A stretch of DNA of 56,760 nt from Spirogloea muscicola (Eukaryota). Where the stretch lies: positions 760,604-817,363 of the forward strand of contig WELB01000025.1 in assembly GCA_009602725.1 (NCBI GenBank), in the 5' to 3' direction. How positions within the stretch are numbered: position 1 is the first letter of the stretch; each line of letters opens with the position of its first letter. This document shows, piece by piece, positions 17,908 through 42,925 of this stretch. The notes under the pieces are model-generated. The model worked only from the letters and a program-made list of their open reading frames with translations. It did no database searches and was not told where the DNA came from. Made by a program: the position numbers and the translations under genes.

Positions 17908-20241
17908 CTATGGCAACAGGCCTACTGCGCTGGGTGCACGAGGCCGAGGAGGGCACACCACGTAGACGTTGTCTATAGGCTGGCAGGTGTTTACGAAAAA
18001 GATCGTTCCCAGTGGACAGTTGACGTGTCCAATGTCCGCGCCGTCGACGCATATGCAGTAGGATCGGCATGTTATGTCAGCCGTGTTGGTGTAGAATCCG
18101 TAGCCGCCATCGCCCCCTGCCTCACAACAGGTGCTGCCAGCCGGTGCCGGCAATGTATTGCACTGCAAAAGGTGAACATTTTTGTTTTAATATTAATCCT
18201 CTCGAGCATTTGCAGCGCGATGTTTCACATGGGCCATACTTTCTGTGTTTGCAATCATTCAGGCAAGCTTTCAAGAATAAGGTCCACATACATCTTCAAG
18301 AAGAGGAGGCAAACGAAGCAGATCAGCCTGTGTGACACAAAGTGTAGACGAAGTCAAGCTTATGGTGTGGCACCTTCCAATTGGGTGGAGAAGGTGGAGG
18401 CGGCGGCCTGACAGTGGGAGGTGGTGACGGTGGGGACGGCGGCGGCGACGGTGGTATGGGCATCTTTTGCACCTCACAGGCTCCTATAAAAGGATCAAAG
18501 AGCAGCTGCACAAGGAATTTCCTGGAGTTCACGCCAAGCAGATTGTACTCGTATGCCCCTCCAACTGTGCCGCCAGTGAAATCCGCCTTTGGTGGCACTG
18601 AAGGTGGCACAGCAGTGCTGAATTGCCAGATGCACAGATCCCCAACTTCTTCTTCAGGCCCGTCAGTCCACCCGGAGCCGTCTACGGGGTCTGTCACAGA
18701 TTCTGCGAGCTGCCAGGCAGCAGTCCGTAGTAGCGGGTGAACAAACACTCACACGCTGGTGCAGCATCTCCACACTTCTCGCAGGTATGACATGGCTCTT
18801 ACCTCGTGACCGATAACGCTGATCATGCCATCGACGCCAACGTTGCCATTGGGCGACGCCTGGAAGCCTCCCAAGATTGAGCCGATGCAAGCATCTGGGC
18901 ACTGGGTCGCAGCGTTCCCAATGAAAGCCATCTTTATCGCCAGAGTCTCGCCCGCAAAGCCTGCCAGCTGCTTGGCAGCTTTGGCGTCAACGATGGTGCT
19001 GATGTACTGGAAATAGCTTTTCACAGGCTTTGCGAGGGTCGAGATGTAGTAGAACACGTCATGCCAGCCGCAGTAGTTGGTACAGAACCCCGAGGTCTCC
19101 ATGACATCCTCGCTCCCAAGCACAAGGTACACGGCAGAGGTGTCCAGCGGAAGCTTGCCTTGTATGATCTGCCCCGCGATTATCCTATAATTCAATAGCA
19201 ACGCGGGCCAAACGGCCTAGTCAACGTTCTGGAGGAGCAAGCAGTGCAGGCTTTTGTGTGCACACGAGCAAGATCAGCACAGCGTGCAAGTGGTCTGGGA
19301 GGATGGCGCATCATTCAACAAGAGAGCAAGCTTGCACCTGCTCGTGTTCTGCTAGAGTGTTGTTCTGATCTGATGCTAGAAACTTCCTATCAACAGCTGG
19401 GAGAAAACCAGCACTTTGTTCAGATCGGCGCAACTTCTCACCTGAACACCTGAGTATCTAAAATTTGTGTTCCATAGCTGTAAGAATCCACTGCTTCCCC
19501 CTTCAAAGCGACGTGGCCATTGACGTGGTTGCCAAGGCTGTCGTAGAACCTGCACAGGACCTTAAAGGCAGGTAAAAAGAATGCACAGTAGTCTAAACCT
19601 GCTGCAGCACATACAAATGCACTGTATGTTACACTTAAAGAGCAGGAGTCACATATAAAGCTGGTGCAAACGACTTGCCTTGTGAGGATGCTCCACCAGC
19701 CGGCTACAGTGGGCAGGCTAGAGAAGTTGCTGCTGCTGTTTAAGGACGTGATGAAGTCCCGCACAATCTGCTTTGCCGGCTCAGCTGACCAGTTCCCGTA
19801 CCACAAAATGTAGACGTTAAGGGGGCCATAGACGATGGGCCCTCCGTTGTAGAAGAGCCCATGGGTCTTATGGGCAGGTGATTGCGAGATAGCCGGTGAA
19901 GGTGCAAACGAGCTGCTCAGCGTGGCGGCAGCAGCAGCTGGCAGAAGGCTGGCGCTCTGGCGCTGCACTGGCAGGTAGACCGGGCTGATGCGCTTTGCGG
20001 CGGCGGCGAGTAGGCATGATCTGGCCATGACGAGCAGGAGGACCACCAGCACGTTGTGAGCTGCCGAGAGATGCAAGCGCTGCTCTCGGGGCCGTCTTTG
20101 TGACCCTGTCCTTGCAGCATCCCGTGTGGACACGCCTCCTGGTTGGACAATTGCTCGAGCCGCCTCGACGACCCTGGCCCTTGTAGTGGGCTCACACTCG
20201 GTGCACTGCGAGAAGCAGCGGCAAGTGTAGACGTTGTCCAT
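17908..20241 (-). CDS. EXORDIUM/Phi-1-like protein + Pro-rich linker + Cys-rich CBM14-like (peritrophin-A) domain, copy 1
   Basis: Hydrophobic N-terminal segment (VLVVLLLVMARSCLLAAAA); Phi-1 motifs LFYNGGPIV, VYILWYGNW, GWWSIL, DSYSYG, FCTNYCGWH, MAFIGNAATQCPDAC, SPNGNVGVDGMISVIGHELAESVTDP, EVGDLC, RKFLVQLLFDP; SPPP linker; last exon 17908-18162 CNT..CC..GFY..DITCRSYCICVDG..CPLGTIF..C..C. The start codon is uncertain. Confidence 0.88.
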
Positions 20242-20825
20242 TGGTGCGTAGCAGACGAGTGACAAAGCTGCTCTCTGTTGGCAGCTTCACCGCAGGCTTT
20301 CTCTATCGTTGAGATGCCCGTCGCCCGCCATCATACTCAATGGGCATTGCAGCTCTGGACGCAGGGCGTGGCATGCTGCCGATGTCCGACACGCCTGTCG
20401 CTGTGGACCGTGTCGAGCAACAAGCACGGCTGGTGCCCTTTCAGTCAAGCAGCGTTCTCGAGAGGCAGCTGGAATGGCCAGGGGAGGCTGCTGGCGGCAG
20501 CTTGCGGTGCGGACTTGCGCAGCTGCAGGCCGTTGTGGTAGACGCGGGGCCTGAAGAGAAGGCCGGGAGGGAGGGCGGGCGAGGAGAGGTTGATTTGGGT
20601 TCTCTGGAGGCAGATCCGCAGCTCCGCAACTTCCTCTGGCTGCCGCCCGGGGAGCCTTCCTCGGCTAGGCCCGGGAAGGCGCGGCATGGCAACCGCCTGC
20701 TGGCCAGGCCGGCTCTAATTTGGGCCAGCTCTGACCAGGAAGGGGGGGGGGGGGGGGNNNNNNNNNNNNNNNNNNNNNNNNNNNNNNNNNNNNNNNNNNN
20801 NNNNNNNNNNNNNNNNNNNNNNNNT

Positions 20826-20827
<2 letters not shown>

Positions 20828-20917
<90 letters not shown>
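20828..20917. repeat. (CT)n/(GA)n microsatellite next to an N gap
   Basis: About 90 bp of uninterrupted CT dinucleotide between the divergent EXO copies 1 and 2. Confidence 0.95.
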
Positions 20918-20921
<4 letters not shown>

Positions 20922-21348
20922 TCCCCCGACAACTCTCCCCATCCCTCCCTCCCACTCTCCCCCCTCTCTCTTCCCCCCAAACATCTCTCTCCCTCTCGCC
21001 ATCTCCTTCCCCCGCCTCGCCAACCGCCCGGGGGGCCCGCCTGCAGTTATTGAATCGACGGCCGGGGCCGGCGATGCGGCGCATCCGACGGCAGTAGGGA
21101 GCCCCGCGCCGTCGGTCCGGCTGCCCAGCCCGCCGCCGCCCCCCAGGCAGCCCGACCGCCGGGGCAGTAAGTCCCCCCCCGCCCTCCCGCCGGCGGGCCG
21201 CCTTGGCCGCCATGGCCGTCCCCCCCGCCGCGCCGGTGCCGCGCCGCCGGGGTTTGAACCCGTGTCGTCTAAGTCACACTCTCTCCGCCCCCCCAGCTGC
21301 CTGCCGCGCTCCGCCGGCCTGCCCGCCGGAGCGCCTACCCCGCCCTCC

Positions 21349-23693
21349 ATGGCCGGCGTGCTGGCCGCCCTGCTCGCCCTGCTGGCCCGGCTCAGCCTGC
21401 CCGTCGCGCAGGCAGCTGACGTTGCCGTCGTCACGGGCTCCAACGACTACGAGCTGCAGTGGCCGTACTCGGTGGGCATCGACTTCCTCGGGGGCCCCGT
21501 CATCACGGTCGACTCCCCCGTCTACCTCTACTTCTACGGCAACTGGCCACGGTTCGGCGACCGCTGGCTCGTCAGCGCCTTCATCCAATCGCTTCAGAAG
21601 AAGCATGCCATGGGCAAGTTCAAGAGTGTGTACAACTGGTGGCAAATCGCAACAAGGTCAGTTCCACTTGTACATGTGCTTCATTGCCTATAACAGCCTC
21701 TGACCACTGTGGCTCCCTTGGTAATGTACTGTGGCTCCCTTGGTAATGTATGATAAATCACTTCTCTAAAATTGTCCCTTCGAGCTTCTGTTGACAACCT
21801 GCTTGCAGTCTGCTTGTGTAGGTGGTATGACGTGAGCTTGTAGCAGCCTCCATCTCAGAACCTTGCTTTCCTAATGCTTTGCTTGATAGTCCATGCCTAT
21901 TCAGCTGTATCAGTATATTTTCCATTTGTTGACAGTGCCCTTGCTCTTGCCTACCGCGTTTTGCTGGTACAAGAAAGCCCTCAGGTTAAAAAATAATTCG
22001 TCTCATACCTTGACCAGGCAGCACAGAAGAGCTAGCAAGTCCAACTTCATCTGCATGTCTCTTTGTAGGTACGAAGACATATACGGGCTCAATGTGAATT
22101 CTCAGCTGTTCTTAGGCAGGCAAATCGTTGATCGATACTCAGTTGGCCATGGTCCACTCACTCAGCAAGACCTGTACAATGCTCTAATAGCCAAGTTTGA
22201 CAGTGGCCACTTTCCATTTGAGCTGGGAGCATTCTACGTTGTAATGACCAGGTAAGAGGTGCGAGGCATCTCTCACCCTCTGCTTCTGTTTCACAAGACT
22301 CTTAGAGCAGCTCATCATAGTTTGAATAGGGAGGTCAGAAGATGGAACTGTCCTCTCTGTGACTGCCACTTTCCATATGCATGCACCTTTCTGGGAAAAA
22401 TATAGGACACACACTGAACATCTTCAGTTGGGTCCTTTTACCTCCGTGCAGTCCAGATATAGAAGTGGATAATCTGTGCACAACCTGCGGAGGCCACTTC
22501 CTTGGAACATATATTAACGTAACTGATAATAACTACTACGGAGTTGAGTTTATTAATGTCGGCCTTGGCTCTCCATCCTGCCGAGGGGCATGCATACCCA
22601 ACACAACAGCCTCCGGGTCGCCTAGGATTGTGACGACCAGCGCACGTGGCAATCCAGCGCTGGATGCCATGATTGGCAGATTGAGCCAGCTCCTCGTTCA
22701 AACGGCAACTGACCCGTTAGTAGGTCAGAGTTGGGGTAAGTATGGGCCCTCAGGCTTCGAGGGAGTCGCAGACTTGTGTAATGGGATCTACAGTGGCCCT
22801 TCAAGCTCAATTGATGTCAAAGTTGGCGTCAACAGCTGGGGGACCTTTAATTACAATTTAGTTGGAGCCTACTCAAGGCTCTTCCTTCTGCCAGCACTTT
22901 GGGATCCCCTTCTGGGTTCCTGCCAAATTCAGGTACCGAAATTTTGCAATTTGACCCCTCAGTCAGCTGAGTGTGCAGGGACTGTTTACTAGTGCGGTAA
23001 GGACTGCTAGAGAGCACCGATTTCGATGGTAAAATTATCTGATTTTCTGTCTGTGCAGGCATTGACACCTCCTGGACACCCTCCTCCATCCCCGCCACCT
23101 CCACCAACTCCTCCACCTCCTCCATCACCTCCCAACTTCCAGGTAATGTTTTGTCCAATACCTTGCCAATATTTATGACATTGCCCAATTAAAGCTCTTC
23201 CTCCTCGCCTCATCACTAGATGGCAGGAGAAGGTCCACTTTCCGTAAATTCTGGAACACTGGTCCTTCTATATTCCAATCCTGGCCGCAAAGGTCGTTGT
23301 CAGATTGTTTTGTTCTCTTGCAATTGAAATTATCTCACTGGCAGGGTCATAGACCACCTCTTTGTTCACTTGGACTCCACATTGTCTTCTTGGTAGAGGC
23401 CCTTTTCTCTCCATGTGAGTCGTGGCATGATACTCCCGACAAACTTTCTGTGGGTGCAGTGCTTTGGTTCTCCTGCCCTACCTGGCAGTGAGTGTTGCTC
23501 CCCATACCCAGGTTACAGTGGCTTTGTGCCAGACTACTCCGACTCTTCTTGTAGGACCTTCTGTACATGTATCAATGGCACTGACATTGATCACGTGCAA
23601 TGTCCTTTAGGAACCACTTTTGACACACTAATAGGTGCTTGCAATCCACTCGATGGTATTGTCAACACTTGTCCTAGACAATATGGCTATTGA
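21349..23693 (+). CDS. EXORDIUM/Phi-1-like protein + Pro-rich linker + Cys-rich CBM14-like domain, copy 2
   Basis: Signal peptide MAGVLAALLALLARLSLPVAQA; IDFLGGPVI, VYLYFYGNW, YNWWQIATR|YED, DRYSVG, LCTTCGGH, GNPALDAMIGRLSQLLVQTATDP, VADLCNGIY, RLFLLPALWDP; exon 23059-23142 Pro-rich; last exon 23460-23693 CFG..CC..GFVPD..SCRTFCTCING..CPLGTTFD..C..CP. Confidence 0.88.
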
Positions 23694-24709
23694 ATTCTCA
23701 GACTTCTACGCTACTATGACTCTATGTTTGCCAACTATGACATGCTTGTTGATATTCCGGGCTTGTAGCTTCTCAGACCAGAAATGCATATTGCTCGTGC
23801 CGTGCACAACATGCCGGGTCTGGCTGGTGGGTTAATCATGAAAAGAGCCAAGAGAAATGCTGCAGCAGGAGGGCGCGCCAGAGAACCCATGCTTGATGCT
23901 GATGATCACCGAGTGGAAAACAAAGCGACCTTGTAGGTTCCGAAAGAGCTGGGCTCTCGGAAATGGCAGAGCCCGTGGAGCCGAGCCACTCTGTCAGCCG
24001 GACAGGAGCCCCGCTGGTTGGTGCGGGCTGGTCTGCACGAGGCAAAGCCTGTCTGAGGGTCTGAATGGCCAAGTATGAGGGCAAACACATTCACGGATGT
24101 CCACCACCTGCTACTAAGCAGTAGTCAGCAGGAACATGTCTTTCATCGAGACCCGAACACCAATCCGCATACCCAAGGGTGGGCGGGTGAGCGACAGAGC
24201 GAGTGCGGCGGTACACGCGCCGAGGTGGAATTGAGTAACAAGTGATGGGAGGCCTGCGTGGCTGAGCACATCCACAGCTGCACATAACCTGCTACGAAGC
24301 CGACCCGCTCAGTGACCACGGGGTCAGGAAGCAAGCGCGGCCAGATTAACTGGATAGTGGAGGTCGCCGTCGATGTGTCCGATGTCGGGAGGAGGCAACG
24401 GGCGGGGCACGCACGAGGAAGGCGGTGCACTTGGAATGGAGCCAATTGGAGCCTATGCACTGTTCCGGCAAAAGCTAGTGCAAAACGTGGGGCTACATAA
24501 ATAGGAGATGGCGCGCGGATAATGGAGGCCAAATTTGCCAATACACTGTTCAGGCAAAAAGCTGGTGCCAGGAGTGGGGCCCACATAAAAGTGGGGCCTC
24601 AAAGTAACAGTGTGACGTCAGTGCCCTCGAGTGAGCACGTATGAACATTTTCGACAGGCTAACTCGGGGAGCCGGAGCACTGCCACGAAAGTAAGCTCAA
24701 ACAAACGGG

Positions 24710-27620
24710 GGGCAGTGAAAAGAAGCAAGCGCGGCCAGATTAATTGGTGGCTGGGAGAGGCCAGCCCAAAAGAATGGACAAGGTCTGAAGGAGTCGGAGT
24801 GCTAAGGACTGAGACAGCAGTAAGCGAACTCTCAGTGAAAAGCGAGCCCGAAAAGAAAGCCACGATAGCCAGTGGCGGCCTGACTCAAGAGGAAAAGTGT
24901 AGAGTGCGCTTATCCAAACGTGGTGAAAAGCCAGACCCAAAAAGGTGGACAAGGGGACTGGCGAAGCGGCCGGGGAGCGGGGGCCCCACCCGATCCTGTC
25001 GGTGATCGCTCGCTTCTCTCAGCGGCGAGGGGCGCGCTCTCGTCGGCCGCTTCGGCGGGACGGCGGCGGGCGTGTTGGCCCCGGCTTGGGGCGGCAGGTT
25101 TGGCAACCACCCCCCCGCCAACAGCAGCGAAGAAGTGGCACTCCCAATTGGGGCAAGGGCTGTGAAAAGCCAGTCTTGCCGACAAGAGCCGCCGCCGCTT
25201 GGTGGTCGCATCCGCGGCGGCCAACCGCAAGCTCCTCGCCGAGCTCTGGCCCGCCGCCGCGTCCAGCCCAGCCCCTGGCGTGTGGCTGGCCTTCGCAGCC
25301 CTCGCGAGCAATTCCTTTGGAACAGCTTAGTGGCTATCCATTGTGTCCATTCTTTCTGAGCTGTGTCTCCTACAGCCCTCGCCTCCTTTGATAAAAAGAA
25401 AAGCAAGCGCGGCCAGATTTTGATAAACACGAGTGGCTCTCCCAAAAGAGAAGTGCGCGCCCATAGAGAAGAGGGGCTGGGGCTGCGAACAGCCAGCCCG
25501 AAAAGGGTTGACAAGGTCCGAAGGGGCCAAAAGCGCTGGCTCAAAGCTTGATTAGGATAGATCGCTTAGTAATTACGAGTGAGGAGCCGCAAATCCGAGA
25601 GACTAACAGCCGGAAAGCAATTCCCTGGACGAAAGCCAGAGGCTGCAGCTAGAGCACGGCCATAAAAAGCAGGTGCAACGAGTGGGCCATGGACTCCTGG
25701 AGGGAGGGTGGCGCATACGCATAGGTAGCGTGAGCTAGCAAGCCAGCGGCGTTGAAGTCAGCCTGCTCACCTGCTTACCTTTGGAAGAGCTGACTTCTAT
25801 TTCAGGACTCCGGCTCCTTCAGACCTTGTTCACTCCTTTTTGGCTGGCCTCTCACAGCCACCCGTCAATCTGGCTGCGGTTTCTGGTTTTCACAGCCCTC
25901 GGACCCCAGGACAAGTGCTAATTCTGGCCAGATCGCCGCGTCAGCCGCGTCGAGCGCGCCCGCAGTAGCCCGTCGTCCGCCCTCCTTCCCAGTGTGCGGC
26001 TGCTTAACAGGGATTGATGTTTACGGTTTGCGGAAGCTGCTTGACATTGCCCGACCTCGTTTGGGCTAGCCTTTCACAGCCCCCGCCCACATTTGAAGAG
26101 CTGGCTTTTTCAACAGCCCTCGCCCCCTTTGGATGAGTTTACTTTCTTTCTTATGCAATTCCCCTTCCCGACTTTCAAAACCTTTTTTGGCTTCTGCACG
26201 CTGGGCTTTCACAGCTTTCGCCCCTTCTGGCAAGAGCTGCTTCTTTCTCTTTCACAGCCATCGCCCCAATGCTCGGGATGAATTCACCTCTAGTGGGCTT
26301 AGGCCTTTCTCAGCCATTCCTTGGATGTAGGTAAGGCCTTGGAAGAGTATCTTCTCCTGACTCTTTTTGGACAAGCTCATCCTTCTGTGGTCTGGCTTTT
26401 CACGAAACAACTATATTTTAGCCCTCGCTCCCTTGGATGAGCTCGTTTCTCCTGTGAGTTCCTTTTGGGCTGGCTTGTCTCTGCCATTGCCCCCTTCTCG
26501 TTCCTTGTTCATTCTTGTGGGCTGGCTTTATCCTAGAGCCTTTCTCCTGGAATCCCGAAGCCCTGTGCCGACCACGTGGGTCCCACCCTCGGGCCGCCCT
26601 GATGTTCGCGCATCAGGAAGGCCTCAAGGAGCCCCGTCCTGGGATGGGAGCCCATCCGGGCTGGGCGGGCGGGCCGCGCAGTTGCAGCCGGTGGAGGAGC
26701 AGCCGCCCGGCGCTGCGGGAGGGCGGCAGAGGCGTAGCCCCATGGCCGGGCGGCGCAGCCCCATGGCCGACCTTTTCTTGGCCCTGTGCTTTCTGGTTGT
26801 TTTGGCCATACACCCCAGGCTTCCTGTCGAGGGCGGTCGGCAGGGCGCCCCCGCAGTCGAGGAGCGCTCGCGCGCGGGGGGCGGTGCCGCCATGGCCCGG
26901 AATAGCTGCCCCCGCTCCGCGCGCGCTGGGCAGAGCGGGTCATTCACGCCCGTCCCATGCCCCATCGGACGGGCCGACCGGTAGGAGGAGGCGTGGCCGG
27001 GGGATTCACCCCGGACCATGCTCCCTGGGGACACCCAGCTCCGCCGCCTCGTCATGACCGTCGGAAGAAGTGGCTCCTCAAACGGGGGCAAGTCGGAAGC
27101 GGTTCTCCTGCGTGGGGGGGACATGGGCCGAGCGTCGGGGCGGGGGGCCCCCGGCCGGCGCGGAGGCAGCCCCGGCGCCGGGTTGGGCCACAAGGGCGGC
27201 GNCCGCCCACCTTGTCCCCCCCGCCATGGAATGTGAATTGAGCGATACAGGGCCTGTGTGGCCAAGTGCAAGCCAAGTGGCAAGCATATTGGCGGACACC
27301 CACATTGGCGGACACCCTCTCCTCCCTTCTTTGGCTCCTTCGAACGCTGTCCATCATCCAGCATCGTTTATCTGATCTGGGCTGGTCAAAGTCACAGCCA
27401 TCGCCCTCTACTTGGGATAGTTTACCGGCAGCTAGTCTGTCGGATGTGAGGCTCCTCACTCGTAACTACTAAGTGGTCCATCCTCCCCCGTTCTGCCATA
27501 GCCTCTTCAGGCCCCGCAGTCGCTGCTCAGCTCGTAGTTTGGCCCCTTCGAACCTTGTCAATTCTTTTCGGGCTGGCTTCTCACAGCCCCTTGCCCCCAT
27601 TGGGAGAGCCACTTCTTCCT
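24710..27620. repeat. Cluster of diverged copies of a dispersed ~50-110 bp intergenic repeat (core GGCTGTGAAAAGCCAGCCC..AAAAGAAT(G/T)GACAAGGTC)
   Basis: + copies near 24710-24803, 24925-24955, 25130-25175 and 25430-25530; inverted copies near 25805-25900, 26065-26270, 26380-26530, 27375-27420 and 27545-27620. The 27549-27620 copy is nearly the exact reverse complement of 52206-52276. Confidence 0.8.
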
Positions 27621-28383
27621 CTACTGGAAGAGTCTGTCCTCTCCTCCCGCCATTCGCTGCTGCTCGCCCCTCCGCCCGCTCTGCCTGCCTAAAGCCCTGT
27701 GGATCCCCTCCCTGATACAGTATTGAACGCCCTCTGTATTCACCTGGCTGGCCGTCATAGCCGCTGTTAAGACATCAGCATCCGCATTCGTCTTGCTCGC
27801 CCTCGGCCCTCGTACCTCCCCCAGGCCCTCCCCTCCGTCCCGCCCGCCTATGTGCACTTCCTCCTTCCCCGTCCCATCCGCTGTCGCAGTCGCCAGTGCG
27901 AGCAAGACGAGAAGCCGCAGTTGCCGCTGCCGGTTCTCTCGCGCAGCCCCCCACCTCCTCGGCTCTCCCAGCCGGCCCTCGAAGGCCTCGGCAGCCGCTC
28001 CGCCGCCTGCTGGCGCCGCTGCCGCCGTCGCCGCCGCTGCTCGCTCTACGAGCTCGCCGGCCGCCGGCGCCTTCTCTCGGTGCGGGAGGCTCTCGGCAGC
28101 CCGACCCACCTGCGCCGGGCGCCCTCCTTGGTGCACGAAGAGCTCGGGGCCGGGCACCGTCGCGGGCAGCGGTTGTGCAGCTTCTCGCCCTTCTCTGCAG
28201 CCCGAGGGTTGCGACCTTTGGCGGAAGCCCAGCGCCCCGGCTCGTCCCTACTAGGTGAACGAGTGCAGCTTCTGGAGCTAATACTGGGGGAGCTGCGGAC
28301 TGTAGGCAGTCTCCAGCACCAGGTGGCTGCCCATGAGGCTGTTCTAGAGCTGGGCTGATGTGCTCAGTGGAGCAAAGCACAAG

Positions 28384-31300
28384 ATGAGCAAGTGGGTGCG
28401 GCAGGTCCCAAGGCACGGGGCCGCCGTGGCCACCACACGGTGGTGCAGCAGGCCAGCTCGCGGAGCGCTGCTTCTGGCCGCTCTGCTTCTCTGTGGGCTT
28501 GTTGAGACCAACTCACACAAAGCCATCTACCCGATTCGCAGCAGGTGAACGCCTTACTCAGAACAATGTGCTCTAACTTCGTTCAGATCGTTTTGTCAGG
28601 TCTTGCAGCGCCACCCCTTTCCTCTTCTCCGTCCTGGCCGCCGCTTTGTGGCCCCTAAAACCCTCTTGTATCTGTTACATTTTCTGAGATATCTGCTTGC
28701 CCCTCGCCCTTTCAGTTTCCTCCTGTCCAGTCCTCACCCCTTTCCCTCCCTCTGAAATTGGCACCTGACCAGAGCCTCTAGGGTGTGCGTGGCGCAGAAG
28801 CAAAGCTTCCAAAGTGGCCTTCCGGGCTGCCCAGAAGAGCAAGGAGCCCGAGGACAGCAAGTCCGAGCTCTATGCTGGCAGTAGCAATGACACAGGCTTC
28901 ACTGCTCAGGGGATGGACTACCAAGGCGGGCCTGTCATGGTGGCAGGTACCTCCCAGAAACTCCGCTTGCTGCGGGCTGCATGGCCGGCAGTCTGCCTGC
29001 TGCACCGAAGTCTGGCCAAAGGAAGTGGGTGACTGGAAGCGGCAGTGTGTGGCCACCTGCAGGATGCTGCAGTATGTCCTTTTCTGAGTTTCTCACACAG
29101 GAGCGACAAGAAGTCCTTTAATACGACCGACTGCTTTCCTCCCAATCTGCAGACCTATCGGTGTACATAATATGGTACGGCGCCTGGCCAAATAGCTCGA
29201 AGCTGGCTCCCATCCGAAACTTTATAGCTGCTTGCAGCAGCGATGGAGGGACGCAGCCGAGCCCGAGTGCAAAAGACTGGTGGAGGGTGAGGCCAGCTTC
29301 TTCTGAGATTCTCAGTGCTCTATGTTGAGCTCCCTAAACGTAGAGGCAGACACAAGACACAGTATAAGGCTGGTGTGTACACTGTATGTGTACACTGTAT
29401 GTGTAAGTGTACACTTTCTGACAAGTAGGTCCAGAGTCACCTATCAACCAGAGAAAGTGACTAAGCTCACGATCCTCCCGACCTTGTGCAGCTGGCTGCC
29501 CTGTATCAGGATGGCAATGGCCAAAAGGTCACCTCTCATTTGACATTGAAGAACGAAACCTATGATTCCTACTCTCAAGGAGCTAGCTTAATGAATGGCG
29601 TCTTCCCTATAGTTCAAAGGTAATTGTATAGTCCTGTTTTCCCCTTATACAGAGAGAAAGCGAAGGTCTTGTTACACTGCTTTCATTGCAAAGAGCACAA
29701 CCTTGTCGCTAGCGCTACGATTAATGAACTTCAGGGGTATGATATATGTGACCAACTGCGCATGAAATTGAGCACAAAGTAGAATGCCCACATGTTGTCA
29801 TGCTCCAAGTATGGCATGCTCACTTATTGCTGGCTCTTTCTTACCAGGGCGTTGGATTTGAAGGTGCTCCCAGTAGATGCGAACGGGGTGTACGTTGTGA
29901 TCACCAGGTCAGTCTGCCTCTTCAAGTGATTCATGCGTGCCAGGACATGTTTGCCTGCTTTCCGGCTATAGGTGGCAAAAAGTACTGACAGTCATCAACT
30001 TCCAATCCCTATACCTTTGCAGCAAGGACGTTGCAGAAGGAGCCTTCTGTAGCGCATATTGTGGCTACCACGATGCCACGACCTACATAGCAGCGGGCAA
30101 ATCAACTGCTATCAAGTGTAAGTTGGCAGATCAAACTTTGTAATTGAGTGCCTTATTAGCATGAGAACTGTGTCAACTCCATGACTGACTGTTGTATCTC
30201 CTCTTGGGGTGCTGGCAGTTGCATTCATGGGAGACTCCTCATCAACCCCTGACTGCCTTTACGGCTGCGCACCGATCGGGATCGTGGACGGCACCACAAC
30301 TTCGCCTAGCGGTGACCAGGGCATTGACGGCATTGTCAACATTCTGGGTCACGAATTGGCAGAGGCTGCGACGGACCCCATCCCGGGTACAGGGTGGAGC
30401 ATCCAGGACGGCGGTCCAAACCAAGGCGCAGAGGTTGCAGGTGCGTTGCCATTGCTTGTAGCGGCAATCGAGCTGCTCCAGCTCACGGACATGCACGCAC
30501 TTGCAATGCTGCGGAGTATTGTGTCGCCGTCCACCCTTCATTGGGCAGCGTCATTCGTCTTGCAGACCTCTGCGCGTGGCAATTCGGAACCACGGACCAG
30601 GTCCGCACGGCACGCTCGTCGGGCGGGTCGTACGCGTACAACCTGCAAGGGCCGTCCGGCCAGAAGTACATGGTACAAATCTTGTGGGACCCACTGCGAG
30701 GCGACTGCGAGCTGACAGTGAGTGTGCCTCTTACGCAGCTGCCAGTCATGCTGAAGGCATGCATCAGGCTCATGCAGACTCTAAGAAGTTGCCATGACTG
30801 ATGCTCGACCTCATACGGAGCACGGACGACTTGCTTTGGCGTTGGCTTCGCAGGCGCAGAGCCAGCCCCCACCGGCTCCGTCTCCTCCCCCCTTCCCTCC
30901 TCCCTTCCCTCCTCCACGCACTCCTTCTCCCGCAGCCCCCAGCGCGCCGCTCAATAGCAAGCCGCCGCCATCCCCTCGGCCACCGCCGCCGCCACGCTCG
31001 CCGCCGCCACCGCGCCCGCCGCCGCCGCNNNNNNNNNNNNNNNNNNNNNNNNNNNNNNNNNNNNNNNNNNNNNNNNNNNNNNNNNNNNNNNNNNNNNNNN
31101 NNNNNNNNNNNNNNNNNNNNNNNNNNNNNNNNNNNNNNNNNNNNNNNNNNNNNNNNNNNNNNNNNNNNNNNNNNNNNNNNNNNNNNNNNNNNNNNNNNNN
31201 NNNNNNNNNNNNNNNNNNNNNNNNNNNNNNNNNNNNNNNNNNNNNNNNNNNNNNNNNNNNNNNNNNNNNNNNNNNNNNNNNNNNNNNNNNNNNNNNNNNN

Positions 31301-32327
31301 NNNNNNNNNNNNNNNNNNNNNNNNNNNNNNNNNNNNNNNNNNNNNNNNNNNNNNNNNNNNNNNNNNNNNNNNNNNNNNNNNNNNNNNNNNNNNNNNNNNN
31401 NNNNNNNNNNNNNNNNNNNNNNNNNNNNNCCTCCTCCTCGCCCTCCTCCCACTTCGCCCCCCCCTCCACCACTGCCACGGCCGCCACCTCCGCCACCTCC
31501 ACACTCTCCTGTCACTTCACCGCCGCCGCCGCCGCCGCCTCCGCCGCCGCCCTCTCCTCCTCCACCTACGCCTCCTCCCCAGCTGCCGCCCCCACCTCCG
31601 AGTCCAGCCGTCCCCCCTCCTTCGCCAACACCAACTCCCTCTCCCGCGCCTCTGCCGCCGTCGCCCCCGCCTCCGGTGCCCCCCCCTCCGTCGCCATCGC
31701 CGCCCCCACCATCTCCTCCGCCACCCACGCCCCCACCTCCATCTCCGGCTCCACCTTCCCCAACTCCCACCGCCCCCTCAAGTCCCTCGACGCCGCCTCC
31801 AACGAATGCCAGCAGTCCGGGACAGCCTGGCGCTGCAACTTGCAATGCGGCCGCGGCGCCTGCCTCCAGCTCCTGCTGCACAAATACGGTGAGCAGCAAG
31901 CAGTACTCCTCAGTAAGCTTAGCCTGCTGCAAGGTATCGTTCAGCTGCATCGCTTCTAGTGCTGATTTGTATCGCTACATAGTAACGAACAGGCACAAAC
32001 TATTGCAGCCCAGCCTGCCAGGTGCTTCCACTTGACCTGACGGATGTTATGGTGGTGTTGCAGACTTCGGGCTTCGCTACCGCGTTTGATGATGCAACCT
32101 GCCAGTCCTTCTGCGTCTGTGTCAACGGCGTGGACGCCATGCGTGTCACATGCCCCAGCGGCACGATTTTCGACAGCACACGGCTCCTCTGCGCACCTCT
32201 AGACAGTGTGACCAACCCCTGCCCACGACTGGTGGTGGCAGCAGGTGTCCATCACACGCCAGCATTTCCACCAGTGAAGCCGCCGCCGCCACCACCACCA
32301 CACCACTATCACCACCACCACCAGTGA
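28384..32327 (+). CDS. EXORDIUM/Phi-1-like protein + long extensin-like stalk + Cys-rich CBM14-like domain + His-rich tail, copy 3
   Basis: Signal-like GALLLAALLLCGLVET; MDYQGGPVM, VYIIWYGAW, KDWWR, YDSYSQG, LPVDANGVYVVIT, FCSAYCGYH, SPSGDQGIDGIVNILGHELAEAATDP, EVADLCAWQF, QKYMVQILWDP; SP2-SP4/TP repeats 30866-31800 (containing a ~400-N gap); TCNA..CC|..FDDATCQSFCVCVNG..CPSGTIFD..C..CP; ends PPPHHYHHHHQ*. Confidence 0.87.
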
Positions 32328-34534: not shown

Positions 34535-35998
34535 NNNNNNNNNNNNNNNNNNNNNNNNNNNNNNNNNNNNNNNNNNNNNNNNNNNNNNNNNNNNNNNNNN
34601 NNNNNNNNNNNNNNNNNNNNNNGGCGCCGGCGCCGGCGCCGGCGGCGACGAAGCCCTTAAACCCTGGGAGCTCGAACGCCTCTCCTGGCCCCTTAAACCC
34701 TTTGTAGATTCTCTTTCTGAGATGGCCGATCACAGCCATCGCCCTCTGCTGGAAGAGTCTGTCTCTCCTGGGCTCTCCACGGACTCTCGCGCTATCATTG
34801 AGTCTACAGCGCTCCCAGGCACTCGCGATACACCAGCGTGCTGGTCGTGCATGAGCCCAGGCTAATGGCTTCCGTGGTGGTGGTTTGGCGCCTCAGTGTA
34901 GCATGTCAGCTATGCATGTGCTCACTCGGACATCTTAGTGTCCCCCTTAGCCAGCTCGTTACCCAGTTAACAGGACATTTGTAAGGCTAGAATTGGCCTC
35001 CATTTCAATTTCATGCGCACCGCGCGCCTTCTCTCACTCTCGGCTCCTTCTGACCTTGTTCAGCTCATCCTGTAGCTGATCGCCCACCATCGCTACATGA
35101 GCAAAGTTCCTCGCCACACTGGGCAGCCCAGGTCAACATCGGCCACAGGAACTTCCACAGCAGATGCCCGTTTGCAGCACGGCCAAGATCTGAAGAGGCA
35201 GATTGCCTGTGTGACATGCTGAAGAAGCATGCGGAAGCGGAAGAGGTGCATGACTCATATCTGCCCTGGGTAGCTGGGCGCGGCACAGCCGCAGCCCAAG
35301 GTGACGCGCACCTTTTGCGTCTCGCAGATTCGTCCTTCGCCTCTGTCACAATCTCGACCAGTTGTTTGCATGCATGCATTGTCTAGTGGGCCTCCTCTTC
35401 ATCATATGGCGCACACTCATCCCCATGTGAATGTGTTTGATCGCGTCCACTAGCGAAACAGCTCTTCCAACTGACAGCAGTGGCTGTGAGAGGCCAGCTT
35501 CCACTGGATCACCAGCTATCTGCAATTACTACAAAACACTTCTTGCAGATTCTCTCAAGCTGCAGACTGACAGGGCACACCAAGCTGGGACCTAGCTGAC
35601 CACCTGTTCACCTTTCCACCTTCACATGGTGAACAAAGTTTGGAGTGCTGAGTACTTGCTCAAATGACAACACAGTGGCGTGGACAGTGCCACCAAAAGT
35701 ATGACGCGCAAGGCCTGATCGATGGAAAAACCATCCATGCCCAATGGATTGCTTCCAGCTTGATGGCAATGTGCCAAAGTCCACAGAGCTAATTGAGCTG
35801 TTGTTGGTGCTAACTTCAAGCAGGCAATTCCTGTACACCATCCCTCTATTTGGGATGATGTATACCGTGAAGCTTGCAGAATGGGCACTAGTGTCTATCT
35901 ATTTCACTGTGCTGCGTGCATGGACTTGCTTACTTCTTGAGTGTCCTTGCTTCCCTCATGACCGCCAAGTATGGTCGCATGCCCACAGTCATTCTAGA

Positions 35999-38626
35999 CT
36001 ATCTACTAGCAGCTTCTATCTTCTCTTGCAAACGGGCCTCCTTGACATCTATGGACTCATCAGCAGAACTGGTCATGGCAAGTTCTTGATAGCCATCCTT
36101 TGATTTCTTCTTCGCAGTGCATTTGAGGGCGAAGGAGAGGAATATGAGGGAGACACCCACCAAGTGCATAAGGGAAAACGGCTTCGTGAAGATCAAGTAT
36201 GAAATGAACAATGTAAAGGCCTTCCTTAAGGAGGTCACCTGCATAGTGCACACAAGAGGTGCAAGAAGTAGAGGCATTAGAACTTGTTGAAGCAGTCAAC
36301 AGCGCATGGTTGCTGGTTGCTGATCCATGAGATCTACAAAGGCACTCCTCCGCCCTCTTAGTGAGGAGCATACAATCCGCAAACTTGGTATTGTATGCTG
36401 CAGTAGAGGAGAGAAGGTAACAAGAAATGTATAACGTGAACAAAAGACCAGGACTAAGGAGGAGGTGAAAGCATGAGTTGCTCAAGATGGAAAATTTGCT
36501 GGTGACATCAGAGGTTGATACCACATAAGTCGTGGCAGCACCGAAGAGAGCCACGGAGGAGAGGACAGCAAGCTGACCAATGTAGGATGCTAGAGCTGCT
36601 ACACAGATCACAATGTACACCTTGGGTTCCTACACAACAAAGCACTGGTGTATAACTCACCCAAGGGCAGCATTGATCAACAATAGAACTACAAACCCGC
36701 ATGACAAGGGGGGAAGCATGCTGCTAGTGTGATACTGGCAACTGCAAGTTCATCAATTCGTGAATGAGGAGTACAGTGCAGGCTGGTCAAAACCCAAGTA
36801 CTTTCAATAGAAGGTGAATAGATTACCAGATTCAGAATGCTTGGTGAAGAGGAGAGTTCTCCAGTGATGACCATCGGAGGGATGAGGAAGAGCAGCCCGG
36901 CTGCGCTGGAGCAGAAGACAACCTCCTCCTGGTCACGCAAATTCAGGAACAACTATATGAGATTGGCACATGTGTCAGTATATCTAGCAGAAGTGCAACA
37001 CTGGATACATATCACCAAAGTGGGAGTCTTCTAGTGCAGATGTAGCCGGGCTTACTTGGCTCGTCGAGGGGCCTACAGTGAAGAGCAGCTCTTGCAGATT
37101 ACCCAGGAATGCGTCAAAAATAAGTGCCCCTATAATCAAGATTACGCCTGCTAATGCAAATGTTGGCGTAACTTGGGCATCCGCTAATGTGAATATGATC
37201 AGGCCAATAACGAGCAATATGGCCTGTCTGTACTCATGCGCCTTGTATGATCGCCGCAGGCCAGGGAACAAATGGCTCACAGCCATGACCGGAATGACCT
37301 GTACAAATGCGAATGTGAGCAGAAAGACAGCTGTGTGTGCTCAAGCTTGGCCTGTCATTAGAAAAGGAGAGGGTGCACTCATTGACTCAACACTCGCAGT
37401 GGCCAACATGGCACAAGACAATGGATCACTCATGCAGCAGCTTAACTGTAACACCAGGTTCTAGCTGCAAACAACTTTATCAAACTAGATGACGGGGCAA
37501 GCAGTACTAAGCAGCAAGTTCCCGACTCAAGTCCAAGAATCAGCAATTTCAACAAGCCAGATAAGAAGAGGCACCTGTTCGCATTTCTGAGAGAAGATAA
37601 TTAGTATGGTGGCTCACCTTGCAGGACTTGAAGATAATCTGCGCAGCATAGTTGATGTACTGGAGGGAGCACTTTGTGAGTCCCATGCTGCCCACCAAGA
37701 CGGCGCCAAGCTTGAAGTAAGCTCCCCATGGATGCGTTATTTGCGAAGGTCGGAAGCCGTGAATGTATGCCAGCACAATGTATATGGCAAACTGGGAGAA
37801 GGTGAAGTACCAAGGGTACCTGCAATGCACAAGCCTGTTTGTTCAGCACCTTGCAAAGGTTGTACTCATAGCGGCAGTTAAAGGACCTGAATTCAAGTAG
37901 TCGGTCTTGAGCCTGCCGGACAATCAGCACATGTTGAAGATTTTAAGCACAGGGTCTCCTTTCTCTTGGCAGATTGGGACGTGCCTAAATTCAAGTGTCT
38001 TGAATAAAAACTCCTGCAAATGCGAGAAGACAGAATTTGAGTGAGCTGCGCGACCACTCATCATGAGCAAGCAACTGCCAACAGTGCAAATTGAGCTGCT
38101 TTTGAGCTTCTCAGTCCGACTTGATTGAGCAGTGTCATCTTGCACAATTCCCACTTGCTGCAGAAAAAGGGTAAACTCAACTTTGCTAGCAGTATAGAGG
38201 ATCGTGGGAACTACATGTGTCAGTGAATGCCTTGTGCAAGATCAGCTTGGTCTGAGTGAGGCATCTGAGGCAGTGGCCATTGGTTTGCACCTCGCAGATC
38301 GCATTGATGACAAAGCCGAAGAATATGCCGCAGCAGCAGGCGACGAGCTGCAGCCACCGGGGCAGCCAGCTGAGGTTGATGCCAAAGGCATAGACCTGTG
38401 GCGTGGTGGAGGCCGCGACGGCAACCTGTGCGCCCTTACTGTCGGCAGCAAGGTGGCCCCTCGTCTGCCAGCTGATGTCTACGACTGCCTCCCGCGGGGC
38501 CTCGTGGTCGTGGTCGTGCGCGCGCTGAGTGAGGCCGAGGCCCGCGCCATCGGAGCCGCCCGCCGCGGCGCCGGTCCGGGCGATGGATATCGGCTGCGGG
38601 AGCATGGCGATCTCATGCATCTTCAT
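35999..38626 (-). CDS. UAA-family nucleotide-sugar/PAPS transporter (UTr2/UTr4, SLC35B3-like)
   Basis: FGINLSWLPRWLQLVACCCGIFFGFVINAICE|EFLF; YPWYFTFSQF; VLVGSMGLTKCSLQYINYAAQIIFKSCK|VIPVM; IIFTLADAQVTPTF; DAFLGNLQE; ALFGAATT; VTSLRKAFTLFISYLIFTKPF. Confidence 0.92.
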
Positions 38627-40026
38627 GGCGCCGCCGGTCCGGAGACCTCCGGATGGCGACCAACTCGAGGAGACGGAGCTCGGATATCAGCGAACGAGCT
38701 CGGAATGGCCGTTCGCGCAGCATGGCCGTCTCCACGGATCCTCCGCCGAGCCTGGCGAGGCAGCCGCCGGTGGAACGCCGGGGCCAGCGGCGGAAGATCG
38801 TTATGTCAATTCAAGACCAGCGTGCCCGGCAGCCGGATCGCTCAGTCTCCGCAGGCTCCTCAGTTCGTCGCAACGAGTGAGCGCATGCAGAGCCACTTCA
38901 GGGCAGCCGGCGGAGCTGCACGATAGCCCGAGCCCCGCTCTCGTCCGGCAGCCGGCGAAGAAGCGCCGCCTGGCCGGCGAGGGATGACTAGCCGCCGCCG
39001 CCGCCGCCGCGAATCGGCTCCTCGGCTCAGCCTCCCGCGCGCCGCCGCCGCCGTCGCCGCCTGCGCCGCNCCGCCGCCGCCGTCGCCGCTGCACGGCGCG
39101 GCGCCGGCGACGGGGCGAGCGCCGGGGACCGTAGCGCTGGCCAGATCGCCAGGGGGATGTGAGGTTGGCACCTCGGAGGGAGCCGCACGGTAAGCGGATG
39201 AACGGCCTGAGGGGAGAGGTGGAATGGAGGGAGGGAGGGGATGGGCCCCCCGCACTCCCCGCCGCGTCGCGCGCCGTGAGGTGCGGAGAGGGCTCCACCT
39301 GCCCCCCCCCTTCCCCCGCCTTAACGGGGGCCCGGTCGGCTGCTCTTAGCGGCACCCCACCGACCGGGAAATCCTCCCGCCGTTACCGGCCCGCCACTTA
39401 GCCGGAAACAAGCGGGAGCTTCTCACTACCAGCTTCCGAGTGGGCTCCTGCGAGCAGGCAGAGCCCTCGCTGCTGCCTCTGGCTCTGGCCAGGGGACCCG
39501 CTTCCAGGAACCCAGTCTCTCTGACTTGAGGATGCTTAGCAGGGGTTACTGAGTGCTTCGTAGCTGCTTCGTTTCTTTTGTGTGCTTGTTGTTCTCAGTG
39601 CTTCCCCTGGCCCCTTCTCGTCCTTTGTTCATTCTTTCTTGGGCTGGCTTTTTCCAGCCCCTATCCTCAATGGGCAGGCCCTTCTTCCTAAATACAAAAG
39701 GCCAGTCGAGACTGCCACAAGGCCAACAATCAACTGAGAGCCACGGCTCCAGCGACAACGTGGATTGACAAGCCCCACCGATAAAAGCCTTTTTAGGCAG
39801 GTAAGAGATAAGTCCATCCATGTCTAGCTTGTGACGTGTGAGACGGGGTTGACACTCAGACTTACTGTAGCCCAGTTGAACCGGATGGACAGATCTGCTA
39901 ACTCCTTCAACATTGGTTGCAACTTACCTACTCTGTAACAGCAGCTCATTCGGTCTTAATACCAAATGCTTCGACTCCCTGCTACTTTCAGATACTATTC
40001 GCTGCTGTAAGCTGCTGTGGGCTGCA

Positions 40027-42821: not shown

Positions 42822-42871
<50 letters not shown>

Positions 42872-42925
42872 CCCGGCGGCGGCGGCGGCGGCGGCGGCGC
42901 GCGCGGCGCAGGTCGAGGCCGCCAT
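40027..42925 (-). CDS. PPT: Plastid phosphoenolpyruvate/phosphate translocator (TPT family)
   Basis: [138 protein letters not shown]. The transit-peptide region is disrupted by a poly-T/N assembly artefact. Confidence 0.93.

Follow-up and report, generated by a model that had tools for sequence, protein, structure and literature searches.

A stretch of 56,760 nucleotides from the alga Spirogloea muscicola (hereafter the window; scaffold s25, GenBank assembly GCA_009602725.1, contig WELB01000025.1, positions 760,604 to 817,363 of the forward strand) contains, at window positions 17908-32327, three paralogous genes of the EXORDIUM (EXO) or Phi_1 family, here called A (minus strand), B and C (both plus strand). 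Judged from the sequence, each very probably encodes, and is transcribed as, a fusion of an EXO domain, a proline-rich linker and a nine-cysteine CBM14-type domain. This layout of head, linker and binding module, together with a conserved site and the predicted fold of the head, suggests a secreted metal hydrolase, with a peptidase as the simplest case. As a tentative explanation we propose that A and C are secreted, wall-tethered metallo(glyco)peptidases acting on glycoproteins of the alga's own wall or mucilage, and that B is a pseudoenzyme paralog.

Evidence for the fusion

An earlier note on this DNA had described three strongly diverged paralogs, one on the minus and two on the plus strand, sharing a leader, a full EXO domain, a Pro-rich linker and a terminal Cys domain. 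The paralogs are confirmed (31-43% identity between the EXO domains, 43-49% between the Cys domains) and so is the full EXO domain: Pfam PF04674 (Phi_1) matches the EXO exons of A, B and C, scoring above its gathering cut-off for the proteins P0002 (155.7 bits), P0003 (129.1 bits) and P0001 (104.2 bits), and yielding 48.4, 43.6 and 24.7 bits for the exons of gene A. The layout of EXO domain, linker and Cys domain likewise stands. Leaders were judged by eye: hydrophobic N-termini are visible in B and C, whereas in A a hydrophobic stretch lies upstream of Met 20028, with an in-frame ATG at 20241, so that the start and leader of this gene are unsettled.

The pattern C-x-C-x9-13-CP-x-G-x2-F occurs three times in the six frames of the window, whereas 100 base shuffles gave 0.01 on average. 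A phase-0 intron separates the linker from the first Cys at the same place in A and B, and a phase-0 intron after the last EXO Cys is common to B and C. In gene C the first three Cys of the CBM14-type domain sit inside the linker exon, and no stop follows the linker in its own frame. Published models of B, of its homeolog P0003 and of the homeolog of A (P0005) join the EXO domain to the Cys domain, the last of these while skipping the linker.

On the other hand, neither the published model of gene C nor that of its homeolog reaches the CBM14-type domain, and a complete Cys domain is missing from P0053 and from one of the four members of a related Closterium cluster. The early stop is probably a mis-annotation caused by a gap of unread bases (N) in gene C: between the two homeologs the published tails differ at 8 of 31 residues and the core at 20 of 367, which fits a wrong reading frame in the tail. 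An artefact, with EXO proteins that terminate behind the linker and Cys exons that are skipped or form small genes of their own, could draw on these shortened models and on the N gap that our gene C model spans, but is very improbable given the open linker frame, the Cys codons inside the linker exon of C, the intron position and phase common to A and B, the tail divergence expected of a wrong frame, and the recurrence of the fusion in three genera.

A conserved site and a predicted zincin-like fold

The EXO domain occupies 18467..19857 in A (minus strand), 21481..22932 in B and 28913..30717 in C (both plus strand). Residues are numbered here as in gene C. In an alignment of 50 bacterial rows chosen without reference to the motif and four algal rows (A3), H227, D279, D295, E314 and D317 show no variation, and H287, E288 and E291 almost none. 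In a larger alignment (A5) with 90 bacterial rows, H227, D279, H287, E291, D295, E314, D317 and Q354 are found in 90/90 and E288 in 89/90, the D317 column being inflated because 40 of the 90 rows were picked with patterns containing this residue. The motif HExxExxxDP is present in A, in C (HExxE starting at 30350) and in 89 of the 90 bacterial rows. In A it is intact, though split by an intron (18802-18710). The conserved polar residues are all kept in A and C; B lacks the motif and has Q, L, Q and P at H287, E288, E291 and Q354, and is a predicted pseudoenzyme. Using a loose HE-x-x-E pattern, 138 of the 148 new members among the best 150 of 3034 profile matches carry the motif.

An AlphaFold model of the EXO domain of C, made with A5, has a mean predicted local distance difference test score (pLDDT) of 75.3, with most of the core above 90, and places HExxE on helix 276-294. 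The order of the strands preceding this helix resembles the metzincin topology. When the model (residues 102-360) was compared with 48,161 chains by VIA-align, metallopeptidases made up 23 of the top 24 rows (Z 8.1 to 5.6, root-mean-square deviation 3.6-6.0 Å), including ADAM17, SVMPs, ADAMTS, archaemetzincins, ulilysin and fragilysin; the exception is GPI transamidase chain S. Two of the 23 rows, 6o38 and 6z2o, we take to be the glycopeptidases CpaA and OgpA. The Foldseek list is also rich in metzincins, though with weak matches (E at least 0.013), and gephyrin E domains rank high as well. NCBIfam gave no match near its cut-off.

Several observations count against an enzymatic zincin, besides the inflated D317 column and the loose pattern behind the count of 138. 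The best Z is only 8.1, and the tool cautions that Z below 8 can mean a mere common arrangement, so that a zincin-like fold is likely and not proven. No Foldseek row was found at E 0.001, and the A3 profile gave no match to solved structures at E 10. The zinc motif HExxHxxGxxH/D is absent, HExxE lacking that extension; EXO is therefore not a metzincin by definition, but may work like one. A CLCA1 preprint does use the term HEXXE, yet the passage concerned names two His ligands and thus offers no precedent. The neighbours of bacterial homologs are mixed, with no consistent hint of a substrate in the 97 of 141 candidate open reading frames scanned. Finally, EXO, PHI-1 and EXL1, which are the land-plant members studied best, lack the motif, so that their growth phenotype needs no catalysis.

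On balance, the suggestion in the earlier note that EXO domains might be enzymes holds up, through the conserved His/Glu/Asp cluster and the metzincin-like predicted fold. From conservation and modelling we consider it probable that A and C bind a metal and hydrolyse something; whether the bond they would cut is a peptide bond is evenly balanced.

The CBM14-type domain and the chitin question

The nine-Cys domain lies at 17950..18162 in A (minus strand), 23460..23675 in B and 31841..32225 in C (both plus strand; split by intron 31889-32063). Pfam CBM_14 (PF01607, cut-off 22.1 bits) is passed by B (28.9), by the last exon of C (29.9) and by Closterium (26.3-27.2), whereas A (17.6) falls below. 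All three domains contain a six-Cys core with CP-x-G-x-x-F plus three extra Cys (spacing 10, 0, 15-18, 3, 1, 10, 10-12, 9), with an additional C-x10 ahead of the CC. The best match by ESM Atlas features is a CBM14 cluster (0.90). A profile of the three domains retrieved EHEP as best PDB match, weakly (E 0.017), and an insect chitinase CBM14, also weakly; the Cys domain of gene B on its own gave irrelevant matches only among solved-structure sequences, a single-sequence structure model of P0001 reached a pLDDT of only 37, and none of 70 pattern matches of the CBM profile in viral contigs was confirmed. By profile, Cys core and Atlas features the domain is a CBM14. Its Cys spacing and assignment thus agree with the earlier note, except that the Cys number nine and not eight and that A scores below the cut-off.

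Binding of chitin is a separate matter. Beside the fifth core Cys, CHIT1 depends on W465 and Avr4 on W100 and D102 (as given in PMC4844120 and PMC6128652). At this position the paralogs read C-Q-P, C-N-P and C-A-P and Closterium C-S-A-P; an exposed Trp or Tyr plus Asp of the CHIT1/Avr4 type is absent from all four. The three Spirogloea domains lack Trp and are acidic, with a net charge of -3 to -6, against a basic domain in CHIT1; they keep 4-7 Tyr/Phe each. Since this site is missing and some CBM14 folds (EHEP and Der p 23, according to PMC10619976) do not bind chitin, chitin binding is weakened. The same source describes contact residues as varying among CBM14 binders, so loss of one site lowers the chance of chitin binding but is not decisive.

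The chitin-directed role suggested in the earlier note, perhaps against chytrids, is therefore a live rival but not the best reading. In this scheme a CBM14 that truly binds chitin would direct the predicted metallopeptidase head to the walls of fungi or chytrids, where it would cut wall proteins or secreted effectors, with B as decoy or coat. We consider this rather unlikely, although it is the main rival. The profile and Atlas matches, the retained Tyr/Phe and the variability of contact residues would allow it. Supplementary tables of Feng et al. (2024, PMC11096116) pair streptophyte-algal CBM14 with GH18, GH19 and LysM plus Peptidase_C1, and the Penium secretome as listed in PMC6027541 includes a Peritrophin-1-like protein. 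Set against these are the C-x-P and C-S-A-P readings, the acidic, Trp-free domains, the non-binding folds (with EHEP itself the best, if weak, PDB match) and the fact that in other zygnematophyte EXOs the linker leads to a Cys tail of another type.

The Pro-rich linker

The linkers are 58-64% Pro and free of Tyr in all sequenced parts (401 bases of the C linker being unread), so no Tyr cross-linking motif was seen there. In A the linker spans 18374..18466 on the minus strand (31 residues, 58% Pro, two SP3+ motifs) and in B it forms an exon at 23059..23142 on the plus strand (28 residues, 61% Pro, one marginal SP3+ motif). In C it spans 30854..31840 on the plus strand, with 58 residues before and 137 after the gap (at least 195 residues, at least eight SP3+ motifs). 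The gap itself consists of 401 N at 31029..31429, across which continuity is assumed in the model. The 'extensin stalk' of the earlier note is thus weakened, the linker being short in A and B, long only in C, and free of Tyr as far as sequenced.

Proposed mechanism and alternatives

We suggest the following scheme. An N-terminal leader would export the protein, and by eye the sequence suggests that a pro-region of 40-50 residues would then be removed in A and C. By analogy to HExxH zincins, H287 and E291 of the long helix may bind the metal together with D295 or E314; E288 would serve as general base, assisted by H227 on the edge strand. The conservation of these residues is observed, their roles are assigned by analogy. 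The linker would act as a spacer, probably O-glycosylated on hydroxyproline, and the CBM14 module would concentrate the enzyme on a wall polymer. Since the usual aromatic site is missing, this polymer is more likely something other than crystalline chitin. Activity would be expected of A and C, and B and a further Spirogloea pair on scaffolds s137/s67 would be non-catalytic binders or regulators. The tails of other relatives (ricin-B, B-lectin, CBM4_9, BTRD1, TIG and Ig in the 68 of 148 scanned) give the layout of secreted hydrolases, and papain-like proteases of algae bear CBM14 as well.

If a peptide bond is cut, the alga's own wall is a somewhat more probable target than a microbe, given the biology of the EXO family and the lack of the chitin site. 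EXO of Arabidopsis is an extracellular protein that mediates cell expansion (PMC2661892), a Mesotaenium EXL rises together with XTH and FAS1 in osmotic stress according to PMC12820192, and the family is represented in the Marchantia wall proteome described in PMC8792609. Pointing the other way, towards chitin, algal CBM14 also occurs on GH18/GH19 chitinases and LysM proteases in the tables of PMC11096116.

An unlikely alternative to the peptidase reading is that these are non-catalytic wall proteins, the EXO domain being a scaffold descended from zincins that binds metal or glycan and the fusions two-headed cross-linkers or sensors, possibly linked by disulfides through the unpaired ninth Cys. 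Nine Cys are indeed conserved in Spirogloea and Closterium, and B as well as the s137/s67 pair have been retained although they lack HExxE. The same holds for 29 of 42 land-plant EXOs including EXO itself (list of 2009, read by eye), and the motif changes at least four times on a 46-row tree. Yet the His/Glu/Asp cluster is near-invariant in bacteria, algae and EXL3/5/7, including the non-ligand Glu of HE, as in catalytic sites, and inactive paralogs, with Q or L substitutions, are described in PMC3650047 as common beside active zincins.

Improbable is a metal enzyme other than a peptidase that would act on wall polysaccharide, for example as esterase, deacetylase or glycan lyase/hydrolase; the CBM would then be a carbohydrate-binding module of the usual sort. 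The fold similarity is distant, the carboxylate-rich site (HExxE, D295, E314, D317) is unlike that of every metzincin listed, and lectin and CBM tails dominate among relatives. All close fold matches, however, are peptidases or their inactive kin, and no glycoside hydrolase, deacetylase or esterase occurs in the top 29 VIA-align rows, although absence from this list does not exclude one.

Distribution in algae, bacteria and land plants

A profile spanning the EXO and the Cys domain matched 3034 representatives at E 0.001. Among the 148 new members of the best 150, a Cys domain is present in three (P0005, P0025, P0029) and its start, truncated, in one (P0053). P0025 is from Closterium NIES-64, and three of the four members of its cluster possess the full nine-Cys domain and pass CBM_14. 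P0029 and P0157 form the s137/s67 pair of Spirogloea, with six Cys, sub-threshold CBM_14 scores (15.9-16.6 bits) and no HExxE.

Proteins with both domains are thus found in Spirogloea and Closterium, and the pair had already been tabulated: Supplementary Tables 4g/4n of Feng et al. (PMC11096116) give CBM_14;Phi_1 once for Spirogloea, twice for Penium and zero times for the other 14 genomes. The architecture is accordingly already counted, and the fusion itself is modestly novel. The terms CBM, exordium and peritrophin do not occur in the main text of the Feng et al. preprint. In the open-access literature we found no description of the EXO-CBM14 architecture, nor, judged by titles and starts of abstracts, of EXORDIUM as a metalloprotease. 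Gombos et al. (10.1101/2022.06.01.492581) include Spirogloea EXOs in a tree and report an InterPro run, and may show the domain in their supplements.

Feng et al. (Supplementary Table 4h) count CBM_14 in Chlamydomonas (4), Volvox (2), Klebsormidium (6), Chara (2), Spirogloea (3), Penium (6), Mesotaenium (8) and Zygnema (6-9), that is, in all zygnematophytes tabulated, and zero times in three land plants. The view of the earlier note that CBM14 is foreign to green plants is thereby not borne out, the domain being ordinary in green algae, and given this spread no recent transfer from animals or fungi is needed. Other algal partners of CBM_14 in these tables are Peptidase_C1 (papain-like, some with LysM), GH18, GH19 and kinases. 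Phi_1 is strongly expanded (33 in Spirogloea, 78 in Penium) and is also fused to a kinase in Zygnema and a legume lectin in Penium.

Six further relatives (P0012, P0030 and P0038 from Mesotaenium, P0017 from a Netrium transcript, P0014 and P0081) carry an EXO domain, a Pro linker and a different Cys-bearing tail of about 110 residues. Pfam gives no match for this tail, which is possibly an uncatalogued binding module.

Land-plant EXOs are single-domain, as the earlier note had stated: this applies to 42/42 entries of about 280-375 residues, by eye, in the supplement of Schroder et al. (2009). By the same reading (PMC2661892, supplement 2), HExxE is present in 13 of these entries, including EXL3, EXL5 and EXL7, and absent from 29, including EXO, PHI-1 and EXL1, 2, 4 and 6. 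In a quick 46-row tree, with row types assigned by motif, the motif needs at least four changes. B, on a long branch, lies apart from three EXO-type rows, but grouping them is not rejected (approximately unbiased test, p-AU 0.34), so that B may still be the algal ortholog of the HExxE-less EXO/PHI-1. The six CBM14-bearing rows need three changes, with which a single origin is compatible.

In bacteria, Phi_1 is found in 14 of 401 genomes sampled from the phylum and 40 of 401 from the order around the acidobacterial match, and 80 of 565 confirmed loci were added from a scan of metagenomes. A Solibacter homolog was already noted in 2009 (Schroder et al., PMC2661892). The algal rows fall on one side of a 100/99 branch separating them from 50 acidobacterial rows; the tree is unrooted, so no direction of transfer is claimed.

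Two bacterial settings may be mentioned. Just upstream of one Phi_1 gene, a secreted acidobacterial protein (L001:1515-2678) with a similar HExxE-xxx-DP and no Pfam or NCBIfam match is likely a distant sister family. Terriglobales genomes (L032, L033, L034, L035, L038, L042 and L043) contain tandem arrays of two to four Phi_1 genes, several beside zf-HC2 (anti-sigma-type) genes.

Gene models and genomic setting

Splice sites are canonical in all three models except for one GC donor in gene A, and no model contains an internal stop. Gene A (17908..20028, minus strand; 476 residues) has five exons at 20028-19679 (GC donor), 19549-19442, 19184-18803, 18709-18374 and 18162-17908; its homeolog on scaffold s311, P0005, is SM000311S11922. 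Gene B (21349..23693, plus strand; 429 residues, with a signal-peptide-like N-terminus) also has five exons, at 21349-21656, 22069-22251, 22452-22932, 23059-23142 and 23460-23693. Its CBM exon is identical (100%) to EukProt SM000025S08445, which is gene B itself (locus s25:781952-784296, equal to the window coordinates of the gene), and its homeolog on s311 is P0003. Word-index protein searches matched only the window's own published models. Seventeen exon-2 residues (window 22069-22119) are absent from the published gene B model and kept in P0003, while the P0003 model lacks the first Cys stretch of the last exon.

Gene C (28384..32327, plus strand) has ten exons, at 28384-28544, 28798-28946, 29153-29286, 29492-29619, 29848-29907, 30023-30117, 30219-30440, 30566-30717, 30854-(gap)-31888 and 32064-32327; the frame is open on both sides of the gap (425 residues before and 240 after). 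The published model SM000025S08443 covers 28384-30957 only, ending in another frame without the CBM. In P0002 and P0004, as the published models of gene C and of its homeolog are called, the linker exon starts in that other frame and then runs into a stop (window 30854-30957). Beyond the CBM, gene C has a Pro/His-rich tail (window 32226-32327) with a PPVK motif, which could anchor in the wall or bind metal.

Frames in the left flank (125 of 128 scanned) match UTP25, mTERF, SKA1, a GTPase and a GNAT, and those in the right flank (135 of 150 scanned) UAA and TPT transporters, an acylphosphatase, DUF6816 and an ammonium transporter. These intron-rich plant housekeeping genes, together with the homeologs of the cluster genes found on s311 by cluster look-up, rule out contamination and place the cluster in ordinary algal nuclear DNA.

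The intergenic region between B and C (window 24086-27619) holds non-coding nested direct and inverted repeats with arms of up to 71 nucleotides and 82-94% complementarity; a Pfam scan of it gave no match, and the whole resembles a repetitive or foldback element. Directly behind the cluster, on its downstream side (window 35600-42900), lie adjoining genes of the UAA and TPT (nucleotide-sugar-type) transporter families.

Significance and comparison with known systems

EXO and EXL proteins are described as abundant in wall and plasmodesmata, and, in plants ranging from zygnematophytes to crops, as connected with osmotic stress, carbon starvation and growth under brassinosteroids; their mechanism is called unclear (PMC12820192, 10.1101/2022.06.01.492581 and PMC8481617). 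It might be argued, though more speculatively than for the cluster itself, that EXORDIUM/Phi_1 is an unrecognised family of secreted zincin-fold HExxE metallopeptidases, with tail-aimed algal members, maybe-active EXL3/5/7 and the pseudoenzymes EXO and PHI-1. If so, it would possibly include the first glycopeptidases of green plants for wall glycoproteins (extensins and arabinogalactan proteins), which zygnematophytes aim by CBM14 or other tails, and the split into active and dead members would recur within the cluster (A and C against B).

What makes the locus valuable, its parts being of known kinds, is mainly that it offers a testable enzyme hypothesis for EXORDIUM together with a predicted dead paralog: the residues of the predicted metal site can be named, two copies retain them, and a motif-less neighbour provides a natural control. 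The ligand of the CBM14 would reveal where the enzyme works, within what may be a CBM14-based wall or defence toolkit of the algal sisters of land plants (CBM14 being absent from the three land-plant genomes tabulated in PMC11096116).

With CBM14/peritrophin-A/ChtBD2 (PF01607) the algal domains have in common the six-Cys core spacing, CP-x-G-x-x-F and, in B, C and Closterium, a Pfam score above the cut-off; they differ by nine Cys (an extra C-x10-C and C-x-C), the lack of Trp and their acidity. Where CHIT1 and Avr4 have a C-D/T-W/Y chitin site the algal domains have C-x-P, and whereas the CBM14 of CHIT1 is carried by a chitinase, here it is carried by EXO. In streptophyte algae, CBM_14;Peptidase_C1 and CBM_14;GH18/GH19 proteins similarly join CBM14 to a hydrolase (compared by the domain counts of PMC11096116 alone), but their heads, unlike EXO, are known enzymes. 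Chimeric extensins such as LRX likewise bear SP3-5 repeats on a folded domain; the algal linkers differ in lacking Tyr motifs, in their length of 28-31 residues in A and B, and in their place between two domains.

Bacterial Phi_1 proteins (Acidobacteriota) are 35-43% identical to the EXO domain of C, share its invariant cluster and frequently bear lectin or Ig tails; unlike in the algal fusions, no CBM14 was seen in them. Plant EXO/PHI-1/EXL proteins (PF04674, IPR006766) correspond in the full Phi_1 domain (129-156 bits for the complete B and C models), the leader and six conserved Cys. A and C resemble the EXL3/5/7 group in HExxE and E-x-x-D-L-C, with Asp against Asn at residue 295, and B resembles EXO/PHI-1/EXL1 in lacking the motif; to the single domain of the land-plant proteins the three algal genes add the linker and CBM14.

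With the metzincins (ADAM17, SVMPs, AmzA, ulilysin, OgpA and Amuc_1438) the EXO domain is only 5-12% identical and has HExxE for HExxHxxGxxH/D. It is nonetheless similar to them in its predicted fold (Z 5.1-8.1), in the position of HE on a long helix and, for the EXO fusions as suggested by eye from sequence, in secretion with a pro-region. Bacterial glycopeptidases carry a C-terminal binding module, as do the algal fusions.

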